Part shown: piece after piece, positions 2,988-17,051 of the stretch
Layout: each line of letters begins with the position of its first letter
Position numbering within the stretch: the first letter of the stretch is position 1
NCBI GenBank assembly: GCA_009781955.1
Contig: WQUT01000047.1
Coordinates: 1-22,811 of the forward strand
Source: Pseudomonadota bacterium
GTDB lineage: Bacteria > Pseudomonadota > Alphaproteobacteria > Rs-D84
Length of the DNA: 22,811 bases
Reading direction: 5' to 3'
The notes under the pieces: model-generated
Told to the model about the DNA's origin: nothing
The model's input: only the letters and a program-made list of their open reading frames with translations
Databases searched by the model: none
Translations under genes and position numbers: made by a program

Positions 2988-3054
2988 GTAGGGGCAAAGA
3001 ACCACCCACCGAAATCTGCGATTTCGTCGGGGCCCGGTAATTATTTGCCCCTAC
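2988..3054. repeat. 67-bp palindromic element, copy 2 (intergenic, 5 nt after the ung stop)
   Basis: gtaggggcaaagaaccacccaccgaaatctgcgatttcgtcggggcccggtaattatttgcccctac. The internal hairpin is GAAATC-tgc-GATTTC, a compensatory change relative to copy 1. Confidence 0.9.
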
Positions 3055-3099
3055 ATAATCCTTGATTTCCGCGTTCGGCATGTTATAATCAGCGGCGCC

Positions 3100-3173
3100 G
3101 CCCCAATAGTATAATGGTAGAACACGTCCTTGGTAAGGACGAGGCGCAAGTCCGATTCTTGCTTGGGGCACCA
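3100..3173 (+). tRNA. tRNA-Thr (anticodon GGU) with encoded CCA; atypical T-loop and D-stem
   Basis: Manual cloverleaf: acceptor GCCCCAA/TTGGGGC, discriminator A, CCA. Anticodon arm CGTCC-TTGGTAA-GGACG. T-arm GCAAG-TCCGATT-CTTGC. D-loop AATGGTA with GG. Oddities: C where U55 is expected, an A:A mismatch in the D-stem, and a 4-nt variable loop. Confidence 0.75.
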
Positions 3174-4236: not shown

Positions 4237-4578
4237 ATGAAAAAAACTTTGTTGTTGCTGGTTATTGCGTTGGCGCCCATTGCGGCGGCCGCGCGCGTCG
4301 CGTCCGCGTCCGAACAGGCGGTTATGACGGTGGCGGGCGTTGGGAAATCGTGCGGGGAACATCCGATTGTCATCGGAGGCACGGTAGAGAAACATCCGAA
4401 GCAAGACAAATATCAATTCATTGATCAAACGGGTAAGGTGGTCGTTGAAATTGACGGCGATGATTGGCGCGATGCGGGGGCGCGGCCCAATGGCGCAGTA
4501 ATGCTGTTTGGCGAAACGGACGGCGATTGTCCCGGCAATATGACGGCCGCCGCGGGGCCAATCAGAATTATAACCTAA
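4237..4578 (+). CDS. Small periplasmic OB-fold protein (YgiW/BOF-like), signal peptide
   Basis: GGAGG lies 5 nt upstream of the second in-frame ATG (4237), so I prefer it to 4225. N-terminus MKKTLLLLVIALAPIAAAA is a signal peptide. YQFIDQTGKVVVEIDGDDWRD resembles the BOF/YgiW core. Confidence 0.6.
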   Translation: MKKTLLLLVIALAPIAAAARVASASEQAVMTVAGVGKSCGEHPIVIGGTVEKHPKQDKYQFIDQTGKVVVEIDGDDWRDAGARPNGAVMLFGETDGDCPGNMTAAAGPIRIIT

Positions 4579-4580
4579 GA

Positions 4581-4609
4581 AAAACCGGTCGGGCGACCGG
4601 TTTTTATTT
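4581..4609 (+). terminator. Rho-independent terminator after the OB-fold gene
   Basis: CCGGTC-gggc-GACCGG (4585..4600) followed by TTTTT (4601..4605), starting 3 nt after the stop. Confidence 0.8.
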
Positions 4610-4624
4610 CGCGCAATAATAAAG

Positions 4625-4652
4625 TTGATTTTCCGTTAAACTTAGATATAAT
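4625..4652 (+). promoter_or_regulatory. Candidate sigma70-type promoter for the aspS leader
   Basis: TTGATT (4625..4630), a 16-nt spacer, then TATAAT (4647..4652). This would give a leader of about 130 nt. It competes with the alternative that this segment belongs to the T-box leader itself. Confidence 0.4.
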
Positions 4653-4727
4653 TAGCGCGTTATTTTTACTTCGTGATGACACGATTGACAACCGGATAGC
4701 GAATAAAAGTAGCATAATAAGAACAAA

Positions 4728-4790
4728 GCAAGGTGGCACCGCGGTGGATCCCATCGCCCTTGCGCTGGAATTAAAAATAAAGAGGTGCCA
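4728..4790 (+). promoter_or_regulatory. T-box antiterminator/anti-sequestrator element controlling aspS
   Basis: AAGCAAGGTGGCACCGCGG matches the conserved T-box core GGTGGNACCGCG. It folds as GCAAGG (4728..4733), a 7-nt bulge TGGCACC, GCGGTG-gatcc-CATCGC, then CCTTGC (4758..4763). The bulge is complementary to GGTGCCA (4784..4790), which overlaps the SD and the spacer before the ATG. Confidence 0.6.
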
Positions 4791-4791
4791 G

Positions 4792-6570
4792 ATGATTTCC
4801 AATAAATACCGCACGCATACCTGTGGCGGGCTGAATAAATCCAATGTGGGCGCGACCGTCACCTTGTCCGGCTGGGTGCATCGCAAACGCGACCACGGAT
4901 CGCTGCTGTTCGTGGATCTCCGCGATAATTACGGCATCACGCAATGTGTGTTTGACCTGACCGATGCCACTGTCGCCGGCATAGACAAAATCCGTCCGGA
5001 ATCCGTGATTACGGTCGGGGGCCGCGTTGTCGCGCGCGACGCATCCGCAATCAACGGCAAAATCCCGACCGGCGAGATAGAGGTCAAAGCGTCGGATTAC
5101 AAGGTGCTGAGCGAGGCCGACGTCCTGCCGTTCCAAGTATTCGGCGAAGAGGACGTGTCCGAAGACCTGCGCCTGAAACACCGTTACCTGGACCTGCGCC
5201 GCGAACGCATGCACGGCAAAATACTATTCCGCAACCGCGTGATACGGGCGATGCGCGACAAAATGTGGGAACTGGGCTTTTCCGAATTCCAAACGCCGAT
5301 TTTGGGCGCGACATCGCCCGAAGGCGCGCGCGATTTCATCGTGCCGTCGCGGCTGCACCACGGCATGGTTTACGCCCTGCCGCAATCGCCCCAGCAATGG
5401 AAGCAGATGACCCAGATTTCCGGGTTTGACCGGTATTTCCAGATCGCGCCGTGCATGCGGGACGAGGATTTGCGTTCCGACCGCATGCTGGAATTCTATC
5501 AGCTGGATTTGGAGATGTCGTTCGTAGAGCAGAGGGATGTCCAGGAAGTGTGCGAGGCGGTCGTAGTTTCGCTGATAAAGCAGTTCTCGGATGCGGCCAG
5601 GCTGCATCCCGAAATCCCCCAGATACCGTATGATGACGCGATGCTGAAATACGGGTCGGACAAGCCGGACCTGCGCAATCCCATAATAATCAGCGACGTT
5701 ACCGAAATATTCCGCAATTCCGATTTCGGGGTATTCGCGAACGCGATCCGCGACGGCGCGGTCGTGCGCGCCGTGCCCGCGCCAAAATCGGTGGACAAGC
5801 CGCGCAGCTGGTTTGACAAGGTAGAGGGTTTCGCCAAGGACGAGCTGGGGCTCGCCGGATTGGGATACATAGTGTTCGCGGAAGACGGCCCGAAGGGCCC
5901 GGTCGCAAAGAAACTGACCCCGGAACAGATAGCCGCCATCCGCGTTGCCGCGGGCGCGGACGCGGGGGACAGCGTGTTCTTTGTATGTGCGGCGCCGGAC
6001 ATTGCGGCCAAGGCCGCGGGCAAACTGCGCACGCGTTTCGGCGAAGAGCTGGGCCTGGTCAATCCGGATGAATTCCGCCTGTGCTGGGTCATAGATTTTC
6101 CGTTCTTTGAACCGGATCCGGAGTCGCCCACCGGCATTGCGTTCGGGCATAATCCGTTCTGCCGGCTGCTGGACGATTCGCATGAACTGGATTTGTCCGA
6201 GCCGTTAAAGCTGAAAGCGTCGCAGTATGACTTTGTCCTGAACGGCCAAGAAATCGGCGGCGGATCTCTGCGCAATTACAATCCGGAGAACATGCTGAAA
6301 CTGTTCGCGGCGACCGGATACGGCGAAGACATTGTCAAACAAAAGTTTGGCGGGCTGTATACCGCGTTCCAATACGGCGCGCCGCCGCACGGCGGGCTGG
6401 CCATGGGGATAGAGCGCATAGTCTGCATATTGTTGGGCGAAGAAAATCTGCGCGAGGTTACGATGTTCCCGACGAACCAGCGCGGCCAGGACCTGATGAT
6501 GGGCAGTCCGAACACCCCGTTTGAACAGCAGCTGCGGGATGTGCATATCCAGTTCAGAAAGAAAAATTAA
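4792..6570 (+). CDS. aspS: Aspartate--tRNA ligase (bacterial type)
   Basis: The N-terminus MISNKYRTHTCGGL...VTLSGWVHRKRDHGSLLFVDLRD aligns to the AspRS anticodon-binding OB domain. Class II motifs FRDE-like (MRDEDLR), QLDLEMSF and GGLAMGIERIV are present. AGAGG lies 6 nt upstream of ATG 4792. The listed GTG at 4744 lies inside the T-box helix. Confidence 0.95.
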   Translation: MISNKYRTHTCGGLNKSNVGATVTLSGWVHRKRDHGSLLFVDLRDNYGITQCVFDLTDATVAGIDKIRPESVITVGGRVVARDASAINGKIPTGEIEVKASDYKVLSEADVLPFQVFGEEDVSEDLRLKHRYLDLRRERMHGKILFRNRVIRAMRDKMWELGFSEFQTPILGATSPEGARDFIVPSRLHHGMVYALPQSPQQWKQMTQISGFDRYFQIAPCMRDEDLRSDRMLEFYQLDLEMSFVEQRDVQEVCEAVVVSLIKQFSDAARLHPEIPQIPYDDAMLKYGSDKPDLRNPIIISDVTEIFRNSDFGVFANAIRDGAVVRAVPAPKSVDKPRSWFDKVEGFAKDELGLAGLGYIVFAEDGPKGPVAKKLTPEQIAAIRVAAGADAGDSVFFVCAAPDIAAKAAGKLRTRFGEELGLVNPDEFRLCWVIDFPFFEPDPESPTGIAFGHNPFCRLLDDSHELDLSEPLKLKASQYDFVLNGQEIGGGSLRNYNPENMLKLFAATGYGEDIVKQKFGGLYTAFQYGAPPHGGLAMGIERIVCILLGEENLREVTMFPTNQRGQDLMMGSPNTPFEQQLRDVHIQFRKKN

Positions 6571-6596
6571 AACACGGGGCTTGGCCCCGCGTTTTG
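6571..6596 (+). terminator. Rho-independent terminator after aspS
   Basis: CGGGGC-ttg-GCCCCG (6575..6589) followed by a TTTT-containing tail. Confidence 0.7.
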
Positions 6597-6683
6597 ATTT
6601 AAGATTTATGATTTACGGATTTAAGATTTGTTTTAATATGAAAAGATTTAAATCTTAAATCAGCAAATCTTAAATCCTAAATT
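6596..6683. repeat. GATTTAA-word periodic inverted-repeat element, copy A
   Basis: Left arm gatttaa-gatttat-gatttac-ggatttaa-gatttg faces the right arm aaatc-ttaaatc-agc-aaatc-ttaaatc-ctaaat. It shares the exact 21-mer gatttacggatttaagatttg with 16981..17001. Confidence 0.85.
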
Positions 6684-6746
6684 ATGAAAACCTTCTTATC
6701 GCATGATTTCCGGCCGCTGGGTTATAATACAGGCGGGGGAGAAGTC

Positions 6747-9760: not shown

Positions 9761-9819
9761 TCCCCGTTCCCCTTGTATTTTGATTATAATGTTCTATACT
9801 GAGGCAGTAAAGTGAAAAT

Positions 9820-9847
9820 GTAGGGGCAAATAATTATTTGCCCCTAC
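9820..9847. repeat. 28-bp perfect palindrome GTAGGGGCAAATAA|TTATTTGCCCCTAC (core-less form of the 67-bp element)
   Basis: An exact palindrome equal to the two terminal arms of the elements at 850 and 2988. It lies 12 nt upstream of the uvrB ATG. Confidence 0.9.
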
Positions 9848-9859
9848 AAGTTGGTTAAA

Positions 9860-11974
9860 ATGAATAAGAAAATTTTTGATCTTAAAAGCGACTATAAACC
9901 CACCGGCGACCAGCCGCGGGCTATACGCGAACTTGTGGGCGGCCTCCGCGCGGGCGAACGGTCCCAGGTTCTGCTGGGCGTCACCGGTTCGGGCAAGACG
10001 TTCACAATGGCGAACGTAATCGCCGAAATGGGCCGGCCCGCCCTAATTATGGCCCCGAACAAGATTCTGGCGGCGCAGCTTTATACCGAGATGAAGGGAT
10101 TCTTTCCGAACAACCATGTGGAATACTTTGTTTCTTACTATGATTATTACCAGCCCGAGGCCTATGTTCCCACAACCGACACCTATATAGACAAAGATGC
10201 GTCAATCAACGACCAGCTGGACCGCATGCGGCATTCCGCCACGCGCGCCATGCTGGAAGAACGCGACGTGGTCGTCGTCTCGTCCGTATCCAGCATTTAC
10301 GGATTGGGCTCGCCGGAAACATACTCGGAAATGAAGGCGACATTCGCGCCGGGCGATCGGGTCGGCATGCGCGATGTAATGCGCGGGCTGGTTGATTTGC
10401 AATACAAACGCAACGATATAGGATTCAATCGCGGCGAATTCCGCGTCCGCGGCGACAGTCTGGATATTTTCCCCAGCCACAGCCAAGACCGCGGCTGGAA
10501 AATGTCGTTCTTTGGCGACGAGGTTGAAGAGATTTGGGAATTTGATATTTTAACCGGGCAAAAAATACGGCGGCTTGAACGCGCGGTGGTGTATCCGAAT
10601 ACACATTACGCCACGCCGATGCCCAGCATTTTGCAGGCCTTGAATGAAATCCGCAGCGATCTGGGGCCGCGTCTGGAATATTTTCACGATAATATGAAGT
10701 ATATAGAAGAGCAGCGTCTGCGCGAGCGGACAAATTTTGACATAGAGATGATGGAGGCGACGGGCACATGCCGCGGGATAGAGAATTATTCGCGTTATCT
10801 GTCCGGGCGCCGTGCGGGCGATCCGCCGCCGACACTGTTTGAATATCTGCCCAAAGACGCTATTTTATTTGTGGACGAGTCGCACGTGTCGGTGCCGCAG
10901 ATTGGCGGAATGGCGCGCGGCGACCGCGTGCGCAAGGAAACGCTGGCCCAATACGGATTCCGTTTGCCCAGCGCGATAGACAACCGCCCGCTGACATTTG
11001 ACGAATGGGACAGATTCCGCCCGCAAACAATATTCGTGTCCGCTACGCCGGCGGATTGGGAATTGGAACAATCGCGCGGCATAGTCGCGGAACAGGTGAT
11101 ACGCCCGACCGGCCTCTTGGATCCGGTTTGCGAAGTGCGCCCGACAAAGAATCAGGTGGATGATTTGCTGGGAGAAATGATCCCCCTCCTGCGGAGGGGT
11201 GCCGCGCCTGTATTGCGCGGCGGGGAGGGTTTTGGATCACGCGAACCCTCCCAGTCAATTTTGCCCGCAAACAAGCGCGGCAAAATTGCCACCCCTCCAA
11301 AGGAGGGGAATCCAGGTCGCGTCCTTATCACCACTCTCACCAAAAAAATGGCAGAGCAATTGACGGACTATCTGACCGAAAACGGCGTCCGCGCGCGGTA
11401 TCTGCACAGCGATATTGAAACATTGGAGCGCATAGAATTGCTGCGAGAGCTGCGCATGGGAAAATTTGACGTCCTGGTCGGAATCAATCTGTTGCGCGAA
11501 GGGCTGGACATACCGGAATGCGAATTGGTCGCGATTATGGATGCGGACAAAGAGGGATTTCTGCGCAGCGCGCGTTCGCTGATCCAGACAATCGGCCGCG
11601 CCGCGCGGAATATAAACGGCCGCGTGATATTGTATGCGGATAAAATTACGGATTCCATGCGCGTGGCGTTGGATGAAACCGCGCGGCGCCGCGAAAAGCA
11701 AATGAAGTATAACGCCGAGCATAAAATCACGCCGCGCGGAATCGTGAAAACCATATTTGAAGAGGTGAAAGACCGCGGGGAAAGAACCGATAAAAAGCGT
11801 CAATTCGTTTATTCCAAGACCGGCGTTATGGATGCGGAATCTTTGAAAAAAGAAATAGCGAAACTGACGAAAGAAATGCGCCGCGCGGCCGAAGACCTGG
11901 AATTTGAACGCGCGGCAGGGCTCCGCGATACGGTGCATAAATTGGAAGACGATTTGTTATTGCTGGGGGGCTAA
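9860..11974 (+). CDS. uvrB: Excinuclease ABC subunit B, with an in-frame hairpin-array insertion
   Basis: [10 protein letters not shown], Walker [29 protein letters not shown], the helicase motifs, and the C-terminal [14 protein letters not shown] domain. I prefer ATG 9860 (MNKKIFDL) to the listed TTG 9851. Confidence 0.95.
11182..11308. repeat. About 127-bp array of five consecutive hairpins inserted in-frame in uvrB
   Basis: H1 CCCCTCC-tgc-GGAGGGG (11183..11199). H2 GCCGCGC-ctgtatt-GCGCGGC (11201..11221). H3 GGGAGGGTT-n12-AACCCTCCC (11223..11252). H4 AATTTTGCC..GGCAAAATT (11257..11287). H5 CCCCTCC-aaa-GGAGGGG (11292..11308). It is translated as ...[46 protein letters not shown]... Confidence 0.85.
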
Positions 11975-11990
11975 AACCATGCGTGGGGTT

Positions 11991-12467
11991 TTACTTTTTG
12001 CGATTTAAATCCCTTAATTGGCCCAGTAAATGTATAATTTCCACGCTGGTGAGTTCTGTTGGTTTGCCTTTGTCCCATGAATAAGTTCCATTGCTGGCAG
12101 TAATTTTTACATCCGGATCTTCTATAATTTCGCGGATTTTTTCGGTTTCAGTTCCAGTTTCTAAAAATCCTTTGTTGATTCTGTCGGATCGCCCAAACCA
12201 TTTTGCATCGCCGTTTTCTTCCTGGTCGCGCAATTGCTTGCTGCGTTTCAGATTCATCATGGCATCCCAAAATTTCCCGCCGCTGCTTTGTTTCGCCCGC
12301 CAGCTTTCCGTTATTTTTTGAGATAAGTTTTTGTATTTGCCCAGGGCGAAAAGAACCTCTGCCAAATCTGCGATGACGATGCGCATATCGCTGTTTTCCT
12401 GACGTAGCCGTTTTATTTCTTGTTCTGCTTGCGCGGCTTTTTGCGCGGAAGTTTCTTTTGCTGGCAT
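11991..12467 (-). CDS. Hypothetical protein (N-terminal coiled-coil-like segment), AT-rich
   Basis: 158-aa ORF with AAGGA 8 nt upstream of the ATG. No motif recognised. It is preceded by the structured leader at 12488..12745. Confidence 0.6.
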   Translation of the reverse strand: MPAKETSAQKAAQAEQEIKRLRQENSDMRIVIADLAEVLFALGKYKNLSQKITESWRAKQSSGGKFWDAMMNLKRSKQLRDQEENGDAKWFGRSDRINKGFLETGTETEKIREIIEDPDVKITASNGTYSWDKGKPTELTSVEIIHLLGQLRDLNRKK

Positions 12468-12487
12468 GATTCATTCCTTTGTTTTAA

Positions 12488-12745
12488 TACAAAAACCGCC
12501 AAAGAATTGGCGGTCGGGGAGTTCAAAAAATCATAGTAAAGAATGACCCCGCCAGTTTTTGTCCGCTTTCGCTTTCGCTGCAGCGCGACTGTTTTATAAC
12601 CGACGGCTCCCCGACCTTGTGGCGGGGCGTGCCGATAAAACAAAAGGCGCGTGCCGCGCCACAAGTTTATCGGGCGGATACGGCGCTTTTTATTGCGTCG
12701 CTTTACTATGGGCTTTTTGAAGGCCCCGAACCCAAATCCCTTTGG
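12488..12745 (-). ncRNA. Candidate structured RNA: riboswitch/attenuator-type leader or independent sRNA of unknown class
   Basis: Bounded by an extended -10 promoter and the terminator above. A 22-bp interrupted closing helix pairs 12701..12727 with 12516..12540. Two helices cross in pseudoknot topology: 12616..12624 with 12657..12665 (9 bp) and 12632..12639 with 12666..12673 (8 bp). Several pairings that involve the terminator arm are mutually exclusive. Confidence 0.45.
12489..12513 (-). terminator. Intrinsic terminator on the minus strand, about 20 nt upstream of the start of the 158-aa gene
   Basis: Minus-strand RNA reads CCGCCAA-uucu-UUGGCGG followed by UUUUUG (plus strand 12496..12513, with the A-run at 12491..12495). 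Confidence 0.75.
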
Positions 12746-12755
12746 ATTCCTACAA

Positions 12756-12805
12756 ATTATACCAATTTTTTTAAGATTTGCAAAACAATTTATTTTGGAT
12801 AGAAT
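12756..12805. promoter_or_regulatory. Back-to-back divergent promoters sharing one palindromic -35 hexamer (TTGCAA, 12778..12783)
   Basis: Minus strand: TTGCAA, 16 nt, then TGgTATAAT (hexamer 12761..12756, TG at 12764..12763). Plus strand: the same TTGCAA, 16 nt, then TAGAAT (12800..12805), leading to tsaE. Confidence 0.5.
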
Positions 12806-12814
12806 CCAAATATA

Positions 12815-13405
12815 ATGGATGTTCGGATGCAAGAAATTAAATTAAAAAATGTTGGCGAAACGCGGGCCTGGGCGGCGGAATTCGCAAAGACCCTGTGTGC
12901 GCCGTGCGTTGTTGCCCTGCACGGCGATCTGGGAATGGGCAAGTCAGAAATCGCGCGCAGCATTATTCAAACTCTCTGCGGCGCGGACACGGTGGTTCCC
13001 AGCCCGACGTTCACGCTGGTGCAGAGTTATGAATGCTCCGTCGCATGCCCCCCCTCTTGGGGGGGGCTGTCGCGCCGTAGCGATAGCGAAGGCAGACTGG
13101 GGGGGGCTACTTCCGAAAAAAATAGTAATAAAAAGTCATTAAATGAAGAAGTCCCCCCTCGTCGCCCTTTGGGCGACACTCCCCCCCACCGGGGCCCCCG
13201 CGCGACAGAGCGGATTTCCCATTTTGACCTATACCGCATTACTGATGCGTCGGAATTGGAAGAAATAGGCCTGGGCCATGCATGTGCGAATGATATTACC
13301 CTGATAGAATGGCCGGAAATCGCCGCCGGTTTTCTGCCCGCCAATACTATTCATATTTATTTGGAAGAATATGAAGGTGGCAGAAAATTGGAAATGACAG
13401 AATGA
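12815..13405 (+). CDS. tsaE: tRNA t6A37 threonylcarbamoyl-transfer protein TsaE (YjeE-type P-loop ATPase) with an in-frame insertion
   Basis: LHGDLGMGKSEIAR (Walker A), SPTFTLVQSYE, HFDLYRI and LIEWPE are the TsaE hallmarks. The 196 aa exceed the usual length of about 150-160 aa because of the insert at 13047..13208. The start could also be ATG 12827. Confidence 0.85.
   Translation: MDVRMQEIKLKNVGETRAWAAEFAKTLCAPCVVALHGDLGMGKSEIARSIIQTLCGADTVVPSPTFTLVQSYECSVACPPSWGGLSRRSDSEGRLGGATSEKNSNKKSLNEEVPPRRPLGDTPPHRGPRATERISHFDLYRITDASELEEIGLGHACANDITLIEWPEIAAGFLPANTIHIYLEEYEGGRKLEMTE
13047..13208. repeat. About 160-bp G-run/C-run nested-hairpin element inserted in-frame in tsaE
   Basis: GCCCCCCC-tctt-GGGGGGGC (13047..13067). 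Outer inverted repeat CTGTCGCGC (13067..13075) with GCGCGACAG (13200..13208). GGGGGG-ct-ACTTC with GAAGT-CCCCCC around an A-rich centre. GTCGCCC-ttt-GGGCGAC (13161..13177). Confidence 0.85.
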
Positions 13406-13508
13406 CAAAGTGACAGAGTGACAGAGTTATTGCAACCGCGCACAAAGTGCGCGGTTATTATTTGTTGCGGCTTTGCCGCAACACCACAACTCTGTCACTT
13501 TGTCACTC
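13392..13508. repeat. TGACA-octamer periodic inverted repeat enclosing two terminator hairpins (convergent tsaE / ftsA-rpe ends)
   Basis: Four TGACA at 8-nt period (13395, 13403, 13411, 13419) face two TGTCA (13493, 13501). Inner hairpins are AACCGCGCAC-aaa-GTGCGCGGTT (13434..13456) and GTTGCGGC-ttt-GCCGCAAC (13464..13482). Confidence 0.85.
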
Positions 13509-15287
13509 TTTGCGCAGCAAAGATTGCACCGCCAATGGAAAATCCGCGGCATTGGCCAGATACGACGCGGACGCCAGGAAATCCGCGCCCGCGGCCCAGC
13601 ATAGTTTCGCCGTCGCCGGATTGATTCCGCCATCCACGCTGATTTTGAAACACAACCCATATTTCCGCCGGGTATTGGCAAGCGTTGAAATCCGATACAC
13701 TGCATCCGGCAGGAATTCTTGCCCGTTCGGGCCGGGGCGTATAGACATCACCAGAATTTCATCAACCTCTTTTAATATCGGTTTCAATATTTCCAGCGGC
13801 GAATCCGGGTGCAGCGCGATTCCCGCCCGCTTTCCCAATTCGCGTATCTTTTTCAGCGCCGCCCGCGCGCCGTTCGTGCCGGTTGATATTATTATGGTAT
13901 CCGCCCCGGCCGCCGCCGCCTGTTCCGCCCAGATTATCGGGTTTTCGGTCATCAGGTGAACATTCAAATGAGCGTTTGTGTGTTCGCGGATAAAGCGAAG
14001 CTCGTCCATGCTGCCGGTTATTCTGTTCACATAAAATCCATCCATCACGTCGCAATGAATCATGCTGATGCCGCCGGATTCAAACAGCTTGTAAGTCGTG
14101 GGGCTGCGCATATTAAAACCCTGGGTGCTGGGCATAATCGGAATAAAGGCCGGCGTTTTCGCGATCTTTCTGCGGCGGAATATTTTGGGAAGCCAGGATA
14201 ACAATCTGCCCCATTTTTCCCGGCGGGCGACATAGTGTTTCGCGCGCGCCGCATCGTTCTGCCAGATTTGTTTGGCGCAGGCGGCGACGGCGGCGTCCGC
14301 CCCCAGATTATGAACGGGCAGCCCGAACATCTCGCCCGCCAGATTTTCTATTCCGGGTATATTCGTGCCGCCGCCGGAAATATAGACTGCTGACGGCCCG
14401 TATTTTTCTATGTGCCGCGCCAATTCTGCCCGCGCCAGTTCCATGATTTCGCGCAATGCGGGCAGGCCCGCGTCGCACACGTCGGCGCGCGACAATTCGT
14501 AACCGGCGTCCGCGACAGCGAATCTGTCCATTTCGCTGGATGCGGCGACAAGGCTGGCCACCTTTATCTTTTCCGCGTCGGGGAAAGGAATGCGCAGCCT
14601 GTCGGCTATATCGTTTGTGATTTTAATCTGGCCCATCGGGATCTTTGACAGCGACACGATGCCGCGCGCGGTCCAGCATGACACGGTTGTCCATGCCGCG
14701 CCCAGGTCAATGAAGACGGCGGGCGCGGCGGATTTGCGCGCGGCCATCCCGATAAGCACCGCCGGGTCAAAAAAGCCCGCCGATTCTATGTGCGCGGTGC
14801 GCAATACGGATTGCGCCGAATGCATGTCTTCGCGCGAATAAGAGATGACATGGAACACCGACGACAGGGCGCAATCGGTCTGGCCGACCGGCAGCGATAT
14901 GTTCTTGAATCCGGGGATGTCATAGCGCAGCGGGATTATATGCAGCGGCGCCTCGTTCGCGTTCTGCAAATCAAACAATATTTCGGAAATCTGTTTGCCG
15001 ATGTCGTTCGCGGAAATCTTGCGCGCGCCGCCCCATTCCGTCGTTTTATTGATTATCGCCGACCGCGCGAATCCGAAATCGCCGGTGACATAGGCCGATT
15101 CAAAATGCTTTCCAAGTTGGGATTCCAGCTCGTCAACCGCGGTTTTAAGGGCGAACGCGGTGTCGGGCGATTCGCAGATTTTCAGAACGCTCTGCGCGAC
15201 GCGGCCGCCGCGCACGCGAACGCCCAGCGCGCGGACCGCAGAGGATCCCAGATCAAGGCAAAGAAAAGACGAGTCAATCAGGTTCAT
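13503..15287 (-). CDS. ftsA: Cell-division protein FtsA fused in-frame to ribulose-phosphate 3-epimerase
   Basis: N-terminal roughly 370 aa: actin-fold FtsA (LCLDLGSSAVRALGV, VFIDLGAAWTTV, ITNDIADRL, YISGGGTNIPGI), ending in an amphipathic helix KWGRLLSWLPKIFRRRK. The frame then continues without a stop into an Rpe domain (IHCDVMDG, NVHLM, LVMSIRPG, ISVDGGI). I prefer ATG 15287 (MNLIDSS) to 15311, which lies in the repeat. Confidence 0.8.
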   Translation of the reverse strand: MNLIDSSFLCLDLGSSAVRALGVRVRGGRVAQSVLKICESPDTAFALKTAVDELESQLGKHFESAYVTGDFGFARSAIINKTTEWGGARKISANDIGKQISEILFDLQNANEAPLHIIPLRYDIPGFKNISLPVGQTDCALSSVFHVISYSREDMHSAQSVLRTAHIESAGFFDPAVLIGMAARKSAAPAVFIDLGAAWTTVSCWTARGIVSLSKIPMGQIKITNDIADRLRIPFPDAEKIKVASLVAASSEMDRFAVADAGYELSRADVCDAGLPALREIMELARAELARHIEKYGPSAVYISGGGTNIPGIENLAGEMFGLPVHNLGADAAVAACAKQIWQNDAARAKHYVARREKWGRLLSWLPKIFRRRKIAKTPAFIPIMPSTQGFNMRSPTTYKLFESGGISMIHCDVMDGFYVNRITGSMDELRFIREHTNAHLNVHLMTENPIIWAEQAAAAGADTIIISTGTNGARAALKKIRELGKRAGIALHPDSPLEILKPILKEVDEILVMSIRPGPNGQEFLPDAVYRISTLANTRRKYGLCFKISVDGGINPATAKLCWAAGADFLASASYLANAADFPLAVQSLLRKE

Positions 15288-15296
15288 GGTTAGGCG

Positions 15297-15339
15297 CTGG
15301 GCACTGGGCACTGGGCACTAGTTACTAGTGCCCAGTGCC
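15297..15339. repeat. CTGGGCA-heptamer hairpin between ftsQ and ftsA
   Basis: ctgggca x3, then ctagt|t|actag tgcccag tgcc. A 16-nt perfect inverted repeat pairs 15307..15322 with 15324..15339. The right end overlaps the ftsQ stop codon. Confidence 0.9.
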
Positions 15340-16657: not shown

Positions 16658-16966
16658 ATGAACAATGTAAACAAATTCATACAGCTGGCGAATTTCTATA
16701 ACCAGATGCTGGCCGTCATGGCGGCCATATGCGTTCAAAAGGGCGGCATCCCGATAGAGCAATACGTCGGGCGATTCTTTGCCGCGGACGTTCTGGAATT
16801 CCTGGCCGAATACGGCGCAAAGCTGCAAACCGACGATGAGTCTGTCCAGCGCGTCGCCGCGCTGTTCAGGGCGGAATATGAAAAGGCGAAAGATCTGACC
16901 ACGCCCAGCCAAAAGCCGATATTTGAGATGACGCTGGAAGAATTTGAAAAAGTGATGAACATTTAG
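16658..16966 (+). CDS. Hypothetical protein (102 aa)
   Basis: GGGGGGAG lies 7 nt upstream of the ATG. No motif recognised. Confidence 0.55.
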   Translation: MNNVNKFIQLANFYNQMLAVMAAICVQKGGIPIEQYVGRFFAADVLEFLAEYGAKLQTDDESVQRVAALFRAEYEKAKDLTTPSQKPIFEMTLEEFEKVMNI

Positions 16967-17051
16967 GATTTAAGATTTAAGATTTACGGATTTAAGATTT
17001 GCGGATTTAAGATTTAAAAAATCAAAAATCATCGGTCTTAAATCTTAAATT
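16966..17051. repeat. GATTTAA-word periodic inverted-repeat element, copy B
   Basis: ggatttaa-gatttaa-gatttac-ggatttaa-gatttgc-ggatttaa-gattt faces aaaaatc-aaaaatc-atcggtc-ttaaatc-ttaaat. It starts at the stop codon of the upstream gene. Confidence 0.85.

Follow-up and report, generated by a model that had tools for sequence, protein, structure and literature searches.

Between a small gene of the minus strand, coding for 158 aa, and tsaE on the plus strand, an uncultured alphaproteobacterium carries a gap of 347 bp (12468-12814), and the question raised by this locus is what kind of RNA is made from it and what that RNA does. The window, that is the whole stretch of DNA analysed, comprises 22,811 nucleotides (NCBI GenBank assembly GCA_009781955.1, contig WQUT01000047.1, forward strand). 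An earlier note, made from the letters alone, had proposed for the minus strand of the gap a highly structured leader or small RNA (sRNA) of about 260 nt, with its own promoter, a pseudoknot, alternative pairings and a terminator just before the gene. The comparative analysis described here indicates that the region holds a real, conserved structured leader RNA of about 260 nt with its own promoter and terminator, for which, as judged from sequence, two mutually exclusive folds have comparative support. Many similar leaders occur in uncultured Alphaproteobacteria of the gut, and together they make up a large family, apparently undescribed so far, that is related to the phage and integron RNAs sRNA-Xcc1 (RF02221) and c4. 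We consider it rather probable that it is a cis-acting transcription attenuator with two folds, an RNA of the c4/sRNA-Xcc1 type that controls read-through into an accessory gene.

The leader RNA, its family and its two folds

The general layout read by the earlier note, with its 347-bp gap, the Shine-Dalgarno (SD) sequence AAGGA and the ATG of the gene, is found in place. The promoter that it had proposed is borne out by a consensus scan (10 of 12 positions, plus the TG extension); transcription would start near 12751-12749 on the minus strand, and between the leader promoter and the start codon at 12467 the scan detected no other promoter-like site on this strand. The terminator placed just before the gene, here called T2, was recovered by a terminator scan and is followed within about 20 nt by the SD sequence and the ATG. 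The predicted transcript of 263 nt folds with a minimum free energy (MFE) of -112.6 kcal/mol, as compared with -84.6 +/- 5.0 kcal/mol for 200 dinucleotide shuffles (z = -5.63), none of which was as stable.

The relatives of this leader can be approached through its gene. The 158-aa protein has only two homologues among 5.8 billion protein clusters, one of them being from the same contig and the other, with 74% identity, from the locus designated L002, where an extended -10 promoter, a structured leader of about 175 nt (z = -4.7) and a terminator all precede the gene. A degenerate pattern was built from the 3' end common to the window and L002, namely the terminator and the strand before it (segment d below). 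It matches once in the window and never in 100 shuffles, and the scan of metagenome contigs with this pattern gave 66 loci, 65 of which are homologous across the whole leader. In each homologous leader a -10 promoter is found, the helices follow one another in the same order, and the start codon lies 15-40 nt beyond an intrinsic terminator. T2 is present in all family members, with the caveat that it was part of the search pattern. In 39 of 40 members a -10 hexamer matching in at least 5 of 6 positions immediately precedes the 5' hairpin, and 19 have the TG extension. The same pattern found no match in 2.9 million viral contigs.

Two main types can be distinguished: type A, L002-like and about 175 nt long, in which d is CCUCCAACC, and type B, window-like and 220-260 nt long, in which d is CUCCCCGACC and to which the closest relatives of the window (L091, L102 and L132) belong. 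A covariance model built from 30 type A leaders only recovers the window at 12755-12491 (36.1 bits, E = 1.4e-7) and also finds a third type, C, with its own c/d pair, in the Alphaproteobacteria metagenome-assembled genome (MAG) L013. With this model 77 copies are counted over the 66 metagenome loci, some being second copies on a contig and some standing in tandem arrays, and types A and B may stand together on one contig (L134 and L136). In the arrays (L095 5178-5570 and 5610-6018; L098 895-1320), Xcc1-like domains follow one another with no terminators between units, strand d of one unit being strand b of the next, and two complete leaders then follow. Five tandem copies of Xcc1 have been reported in Xylella (PMC12189769).

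From 5' to 3', the elements of the leader succeed one another in the order 5' hairpin, segment a and hairpin H2 (R1 in its loop), R2, HP1, T1 (in the long forms), b, c, HP-A, HP-B (R2' in its loop), junction J, which is R1', d, T2, SD sequence and start codon. In the window they occupy the following positions:

12756-12783, minus strand: promoter, with -35 TTGCAA (12783-12778), a 16-nt spacer and an extended -10 TGgTATAAT (12764-12756)
12728-12749, minus strand: 5' hairpin GAAUCCAAA-GGGA-UUUGGGUUC; helix 1 is 82% paired and covarying, with 7 of 8 pairs covarying in type A
12710-12727, minus strand: segment a (GGGG) and local hairpin H2 (GGGC-CUUCAAAAA-GCCC), whose stem covaries, alternating from GC to AU
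12721-12713, minus strand: R1 (UUCAAAAAG), within the H2 loop, pairing with R1' and showing compensatory C-G/G-C/A-U changes
12701-12710, minus strand: R2 (CAUAGUAAAG), 5' strand of the inner closing rod, complementary to R2' of its own locus, with 6 of 8 pairs covarying
12681-12700, minus strand: HP1 hairpin (CGACGC-AAUAAAAA-GCGCCG), 96% paired, with both-side changes in 4 of 6 pairs
12632-12673, minus strand: T1, internal hairpin (GGCGCG-GCA-CGCGCC, then UUUUGUUUUAU), terminator-like in the scan, with clamp CCGAUAAA/UUUAUCGG; stem 92.6% paired, with 4 covarying pairs
12616-12627, minus strand: segment b (CCCCGCC...), which resembles d, holds CGCCACAAG and can pair with c as the b:c hairpin
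12607-12616, minus strand: segment c (GGUCGGGGAG), 5' strand of P1 in the Xcc1-like fold and aligned with P1 of RF02221; the c:d helix is 100% paired
12549-12606, minus strand: HP-A, with outer stem CCGUCGGUU/AACUGGCGG and internal loop UAUAAAACA / AAAAA; 89.7% paired, 5 pairs with both-side changes, aligning to hairpin 1 of RF02221
12561-12589, minus strand: module of 29 nt inserted at the tip of HP-A
12522-12547, minus strand: HP-B (GUCAU...AUGAU), J included; its loop and 3' arm bear R2' (CUUUACUAUG, 12541-12532)
12530-12522, minus strand: junction J, which is R1' (UUUUUUGAA), after HP-B
12512-12521, minus strand: segment d (CUCCCCGACC), pairing with a via CCCC (rod) or with c via all 10 nt (Xcc1-like fold); its last 4 nt are also the foot of T2
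12490-12515, minus strand: T2, intrinsic terminator GACCGCCAA-UUCU-UUGGCGGUU followed by U5
11991-12479, minus strand: SD AAGGA (12479-12475) and the 158-aa orphan gene (ATG at 12467), preceded by the leader

All the helices listed in the earlier note exist at the places given there, including the order CCGAUAAA, CUUGUGGCG, UUUAUCGG, CGCCACAAG by which two of them interleave. The long closing helix is real, being part of the MFE fold in interrupted form (4 + 9 + 10-12 bp) and showing many compensatory changes across relatives, and the 10-bp complementarity of GGUCGGGGAG to CUCCCCGACC next to the terminator is conserved and covaries. The pseudoknot stood only in part: both helices are present and interleave, but the 9-bp helix CUUGUGGCG/CGCCACAAG is kept only in the near-identical L091 and is 60% paired across nine relatives, barely above slid controls, so that the pseudoknot reading is without comparative support. 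The 8-bp helix CCGAUAAA/UUUAUCGG is better read as the foot of T1, whose clamp is present in relatives with register shifts, T1 itself being restricted to the longer family members. The general idea of alternative pairings that include the terminator is upheld in the form of c:d against T2, while the specific pairing proposed, in which UGGCGGGG would engage the terminator arm, shows no conservation; this segment forms the 3' arm of HP-A and covaries with CCGUCGGU.

When compensatory changes were sought in homologues, as the earlier note had suggested, the rod, HP1, T1, HP-A and c:d helices were all found to covary. The rod fold consists of a:d, R1:R1', R2:R2', b:c and T2. In the type A alignment it is 93% paired, as compared with 39-53% for slid controls, and the R1:R1' pairs exchange AU, CG, GC and UA. 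R2 and R2' differ at almost every locus and yet remain complementary: strands of the same locus form 8.6 bp on average, strands taken from different loci 5.1 bp, a helix of 7 bp being reached in 90% of cases within a locus and in 10% between loci. Both-side changes are also seen in each of the rod, HP1, T1 and HP-A when the nine type B sequences nearest to the window are compared. The b:c hairpin occurs in all members (99% paired in type A; type B was assessed by eye).

The alternative, Xcc1-like fold consists of H2, HP-B and c:d, and forms a three-way junction. The HP-B stem changes from AU to UA, with the variants CAAUU/AAUUG, CUAU/AUAG and UCAU/AUGA; the c:d helix shows one exchange of G-C for U-A at positions outside both the rod and T2, and it changes jointly among types A, B and C. 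The covariation score is higher than that of any of 500 shuffles and of any slid control. Only one of the two folds can form at a time, because the CCCC of d pairs with a or with c, because R2' overlaps the 3' arm of HP-B, and because c pairs with b or with d. When c:d was enforced in a folding computation on the window, T2 fell from 9 to 5 bp and was parted from its U tract. When the choice between the folds falls, with the 3' arm of T2 still to be transcribed, the rod is computed to be the more stable fold in every one of the 39 members tested; its advantage has a median of 8 kcal/mol and amounts to 6.2 kcal/mol in the window, and termination would therefore be the default. As expected of an attenuator, formation of the terminator excludes a conserved alternative pairing, which would be predicted to affect termination.

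Some further features of the leader may be recorded here. The loop of the 5' hairpin of type B with its closing pairs, AAAGGGAUUU in the window (12728-12749, minus strand) and ACAGGGAUGU in L132, presumably resembles the high-affinity hairpin consensus of CsrA/RsmA; the type A loop differs (GWGUU). The 5' side of HP-B, UCAUUCUUU (12538-12546, minus strand), is complementary over 9 bp, one of them G-U, to the SD region AAGGAAUGA (12471-12479, minus strand), and a comparable complementarity of 7 bp is present in L091, although it is not general. The 29-nt module at the tip of HP-A, GTCGCGCYGYAGCGAWAGCGAARGCRGAC, is found again inside the insertion in tsaE (13069-13097, plus strand); it is missing from the closest leader relatives L091, L102 and L132, a similar one occurs in L120, and it looks like a tiny mobile hairpin. 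Finally, a leader peptide was considered on account of an AUG in L002, 8 nt after the GGAGG of segment c, which opens an open reading frame (ORF) of 12 codons, and was rejected, its start codon not being conserved in other members.

Kinship with sRNA-Xcc1 and c4

The earlier note had been unable to assign the region to any known RNA family. This holds at Rfam gathering thresholds, at which no match was found in the leader region, and has to be qualified by a weak match to sRNA-Xcc1. In a permissive search, the domain from c to d matches RF02221 end to end (model 1-87) with 37.1 bits at 12616-12504 on the minus strand, the threshold being 53; the E-value is 5.9e-5 for a search of 501 nt and 0.0027 for the whole window. 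Matches to RF02221 were obtained in 7 of 20 family members with 32-50 bits (32.5-50.2), always in register, and not in L002.

sRNA-Xcc1 is known as a discrete 88-nt RNA in Xanthomonas (PMC2996969), and it is abundant with low ribosome coverage in enterohaemorrhagic E. coli (EHEC) (PMC5331693). It precedes the toxin gene symE in Xanthomonas integron cassettes (bioRxiv 10.1101/2025.06.18.660453), and published copies stand upstream of an ORF6N gene in the APSE phages of Hamiltonella and beside C4 and IsrK in Xylella, where they belong to prophage or island regions. The leader in the window shares with it a 3' domain with a closing helix of 9-10 bp, a hairpin with an A/U-rich internal loop and a second hairpin, a U-rich junction of 6-7 nt (UUUUGAR), and a 3' strand followed by RCC (the tail being GCCA in the window), as well as its place on inserted DNA, shortly before a gene of the same orientation.

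A genuine Xcc1 of an E. coli prophage (79.6 bits; leader at L004 2395-2610), 40 nt upstream of an ORF6N-domain gene, carries the likeness beyond this domain. As in the family of the window, an upstream hairpin, GGUG-CUCAAAA-CACC, has a loop that matches the junction UUUUGAG, an upstream strand, GCAAGUAG, matches the loop of hairpin 2, and the MFE fold is the same rod. The extended two-state leader is therefore shared by RNAs outside the gut family. At E <= 1 this E. coli leader was missed by the type A covariance model, and the case for homology over the whole leader is for this reason one of architecture and sub-threshold scores.

There are also differences from sRNA-Xcc1. The conserved loop sequences are alike in composition without being identical: the internal loop of hairpin 1 reads AAUACAAUA ... 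GGGAAUA in RF02221, UAUAAAACA ... AAAAA in the window and GAAUAUAUUGAAUAA in type A. The gut leaders have a separate canonical intrinsic terminator downstream; their host clade, that of gut Alphaproteobacteria, is new, and so are the genes that follow, which code for secreted or orphan proteins. Moreover, Xcc1 figures in Rfam and in the literature consulted as a trans-acting sRNA of about 88 nt, whereas the gut family is a two-state leader of 175-260 nt. The family is thus a divergent variant of the sRNA-Xcc1/c4 kind, outside the membership of RF02221.

The 87-nt c4 RNA of phages P1 and P7 (RF01695; a1/b1, RF03163; immI operon) resembles the leader in its closing helix, two hairpins, 7-nt junction and CCACC-like tail, and, in P7, in an upstream hairpin pair followed by an internal hairpin with a U run. 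The antisense elements of P7 c4 are the loop of hairpin 2 and the junction, exactly the positions held by R2' and R1' in the window; in P7, taken as a control, the b1 loop UUAGCAG pairs with the c4 junction CUGCUAA. Complementarity of the hairpin-2 loop and of the junction to upstream sites, which characterizes clan CL00128, was found in the gut family as R2:R2' and R1:R1'. IsrK (RF01394) also matches the same P7 stretch, below its threshold.

Unlike the gut leader, which has a terminator there, P7 c4 pairs over 14 and 10 bp with downstream sites over the icd ribosome-binding site. Downstream targets of the a2/b2 type, sought in the 60-80 nt past the terminator, did not stand out (7.9 bp within and 8.1 bp across loci over 80 nt; 6.0 and 6.0 bp over 60 nt). 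The C4 covariance model gave no match in 12400-12900 at E <= 10 and none among 20 family members, and the context of the phage immI operon (C1 operator, icd, antirepressor) is not that of the window, the neighbours being uvrB and tsaE. A match of c4-a1b1 in L002 (17.3 bits against a threshold of 46.7, E = 0.05) was set aside, as it did not recur in 20 other members, and is taken as analogy and not as homology.

The inserted module and its surroundings

The leader arrived at its present place together with its promoter and its gene:

11975-12814, about 840 bp: whole inserted module (158-aa gene, leader and promoter), between uvrB and tsaE, as seen from the adjacency of uvrB and tsaE in relatives

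In five related MAGs, tsaE follows uvrB directly on one strand, only about 0-55 nt separating the two genes, so that the 840 bp or so of promoter, leader and gene are an insertion; since these relatives are without the module, a synteny-based comparison of the leader was ruled out. No target-site duplication was seen at the insertion junctions, and a blastn search of the leader region against plasmid and phage collections gave no match. The related module of L002 sits between other genes, a ybeY-lnt fusion and ftsK. Promoter, leader and gene thus move as one unit. The 158-aa protein itself has no match in Pfam or PADLOC, and its sole match in PHROG is a non-significant one to a coiled coil (E = 0.037).

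The genes that follow other members of the family are equally individual. The downstream ORFs, which usually start within the spacing from T2 given above, are mutually unrelated (mean column identity 6%). When 48 downstream proteins were compared with Pfam, most had no family, six carried Listeria-Bacteroides (Flg_new) repeats, one was an autotransporter and one a helix-turn-helix protein; most of them have a start resembling a signal peptide and are rich in cysteine. The family looks like a leader of accessory genes and not like a metabolic regulon.

On the other side of the module, a divergent promoter for tsaE had been proposed at 12778-12805 on the plus strand (TTGCAA-16-TAGAAT). It agrees with the consensus at only 9 of 12 positions and stops 10 nt short of the ATG annotated for tsaE; relatives align from residue 5-6, and the true start may be the ATG at 12827. 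As the insertion has separated tsaE from uvrB, tsaE may rely on a promoter provided by the edge of the module.

Both flanking genes have received material of another kind. The tsaE gene (12815-13405, plus strand) contains an in-frame insertion of about 55 aa (13040-13215) with hairpins of C7/G8 runs (CCCCCCCUCUUGGGGGGGG, GGGGGGGGCUACUUC...GAAGUCCCCCC, GUCGCCCUUUGGGCGAC), which splits the Pfam TsaE match; the TsaE proteins of L009 and L010 align only to residues 5-73 and 122/129-194. We take this insertion to resemble the in-frame palindromic elements of Rickettsia. A second hairpin-rich, in-frame insertion lies at about 11180-11320 in uvrB (9851-11974, plus strand), with CCCCUCC-UGC-GGAGGGG, GCCGCGC...GCGCGGC and CCCCUCC-AAA-GGAGGGG, and over the span that can be aligned, the uvrB of relatives codes for about 41 aa less.

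Beyond tsaE, a single ORF of 602 aa (13503-15311, minus strand) joins an FtsA-like N-terminal part to a ribulose-phosphate 3-epimerase domain. This FtsA-Rpe fusion, which adjoins the leader region, has full-length relatives with 45-54% identity in seven MAGs, four of them titled Alphaproteobacteria, two "uncultured proteobacterium" and one Muribaculaceae; the five MAGs with adjacent uvrB and tsaE were drawn from these seven. Between the convergent ends of tsaE and ftsA-rpe, at 13399-13509, stands an imperfect inverted repeat of 44 nt composed of GTGACAGAGT units; it includes a GC hairpin and a T run at 13434-13456 and is possibly a bidirectional terminator.

Other repeats are found further away in the window. 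A 68-nt repeat occurs twice (850-917 and 2988-3055, 93% identical) and ends in the palindrome GTAGGGGCAAATAATTATTTGCCCCTAC; one of its copies lies about 45 nt upstream of tRNA-Thr (3100-3173), and the palindrome alone is present at 9818-9849, just upstream of uvrB. Blocks of short repeats of the GATTTAAGATTT type occupy two intergenic regions (6596-6692 and 16961-17020) and are partly inverted copies of each other, 86-91% complementary. Finally, a weak full-length T-box match at 4578-4764 on the plus strand (23.8 bits, threshold 93, E = 0.11), situated just before and overlapping the start of the aspartyl-tRNA synthetase ORF (4744-6570), is probably due to chance.

Mechanism and rival explanations

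In the attenuator that we favour, the OFF state would be the default: R2' in the HP-B loop would pair with R2 and R1' in the junction with R1, forming with GGGG:CCCC a long rod, c would be sequestered in the b:c hairpin, and T2 would form right after the rod, so that transcription halts about 20 nt before the ribosome-binding site. In the ON state, the 5' elements would fold locally as H2, HP-B would form and c would pair with d to give the three-way junction of Xcc1; c:d would then take the foot of T2 and uncouple it from the U tract, and polymerase would enter the gene. How the two folds affect read-through, and what flips them, is inferred, while the conservation, the covariation of both folds, the two transcription signals, the advantage of the rod in computed energy and the insertion are shown.

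Our best guess is that the trigger is a macromolecule. It is favoured over a metabolite because the relatives of the leader are antisense RNAs, because R2 is locus-specific and because the regulated genes share no pathway; the lack of a common metabolic theme among the downstream genes argues against a metabolite. The trigger might be the RNA itself, in the form of a processed or terminated copy, which would act in trans on the nascent R1 and R2 as c4 and IsrK do; another candidate is a protein that would bind the conserved loop of HP-A. A more specific version is offered tentatively, as something possible and not probable: each accessory gene would be accompanied on its moves by a promoter and by an antisense RNA of the c4 kind, directed solely at the 5' end of the leader to which that RNA belongs, forming a portable, self-addressed switch, in which the R2/R2' address prevents cross-talk between paralogues and copies acting in trans flip the terminator towards read-through.

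Several observations weigh against the attenuator. The score of the window for RF02221 lies below the gathering threshold of Rfam. The evidence for the Xcc1-like fold is thin, with 1-2 covarying pairs per helix, and c:d is nearly invariant within each type, in part because the search pattern fixed d. Segment d overlaps T2 by only 4 nt in the window and by 1-2 nt in L013, and since this overlap is short, antitermination by c:d may be partial. Some copies stand in tandem arrays or have no clear ORF after them (L095, L098), and the sRNA-Xcc1 of Xanthomonas accumulates as an 88-nt RNA; these two facts fit a stand-alone RNA as well as a leader. Moreover, termination, read-through and transcription start are all predictions made from sequence motifs and computed folds.

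The rival that survives best is a gene for a stand-alone, trans-acting sRNA, either of about 260 nt and ending at T2 or consisting of a processed 3' domain of about 90 nt, with targets elsewhere and a merely incidental downstream gene. We judge it unlikely. In its favour, besides the discrete and abundant Xcc1 RNAs cited above, it would account for the strong promoter and terminator, for the tandem arrays without intervening genes and for the fact that the homologous positions in c4 are antisense elements. Nevertheless, in the window and in most members the RNA lies directly upstream of a co-oriented ORF for which no separate promoter is seen, the insertion brought in RNA and gene jointly, and the sole detectable partners of the antisense-like elements are found inside the same leader. 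The two models are in any case compatible and do not exclude each other.

A small-molecule riboswitch would use the three-way junction of c:d, HP-A and HP-B as its aptamer, the ligand supplying some 8 kcal/mol against rod and terminator. Second-messenger riboswitches are present in several copies upstream of different genes and have tandem domains, and the family likewise has several copies per contig or genome before different genes, with occasional tandem domains. It also shares with transcriptional riboswitches and attenuators a promoter-proximal structured leader, and two exclusive, covarying folds coupled to a terminator just before the ribosome-binding site; its junction and HP-A loop (GAAUAUAUUGAAUAA or UAUAAAACA.../AAAA) are conserved in sequence. 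What makes this explanation quite improbable is that the 48 downstream genes have no common enzymatic or transport theme and code mostly for cysteine-rich secreted or orphan proteins, and that the relatives of the fold, Xcc1 and c4, are antisense-type RNAs of phages and integrons. Furthermore, the anti-antiterminator is an unusually long rod between the 5' and 3' ends whose inner part is locus-specific, a feature of RNA-RNA addressing for which an aptamer has no need. Were the junction nonetheless to bind a signal derived from the host or the gut, as the aptamer of an orphan riboswitch, this alternative would be as novel as the self-addressed switch.

The selfish palindromic repeat, akin to miniature inverted-repeat transposable elements (MITE), repetitive extragenic palindromes (REP) or Rickettsia palindromic elements (RPE), would have no regulatory role, its closing helix being a terminal inverted repeat. 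The hairpin-rich insertions of this genome, in frame even in tsaE and uvrB, the 29-nt module common to the leader and the tsaE insertion and the multiple copies of the family lend themselves to it. It is very improbable all the same. The earlier note had itself allowed that the region might be one more copy of a dispersed repeat, and the window contains no second copy, only the 29-nt module being shared; the strands of the supposed inverted repeat differ from locus to locus and stay complementary, which is covariation of the RNA type and not the conserved end required by a transposase; promoter, terminator and orientation towards the ORF are conserved, and the junctions show no target-site duplication.

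In loci of the ToxIN type a promoter is followed by an RNA, a terminator and a gene. A defence or toxin-antitoxin module resembling type III, in which a structured RNA antitoxin, a terminator and a toxin gene succeed one another, would agree with this order, with the small mobile module and with the position of Xcc1 before symE in Xanthomonas integrons (bioRxiv 10.1101/2025.06.18.660453), but hardly comes into consideration, as the RNA of the window has no array of tandem repeats, the downstream proteins are unrelated to one another and mostly bear signal peptides, and the 158-aa protein has no toxin-family, PADLOC, Pfam or significant PHROG match.

With covariation drawn from more than 60 loci in Alphaproteobacteria of gut, rumen and termite gut, and lying outside Rfam 15, the leader is widespread and represents a candidate class of regulatory RNA. 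It precedes fast-evolving genes of secreted or surface proteins, and is therefore likely to offer a handle on how these bacteria control their accessory repertoire; the unit of about 0.8 kb formed by promoter, leader and gene is able to enter a housekeeping operon. The family joins sRNA-Xcc1, c4/a1b1 and terminator-based attenuators in one architecture, in which the 88-nt Xcc1 would be one domain of a two-state leader, an idea directly testable in E. coli prophages and in Xanthomonas. If the self-addressed switch were true, each gene would have its own autoregulatory threshold, and the orphan sRNA-Xcc1 of phages and integrons would be the 3' domain of such a leader.

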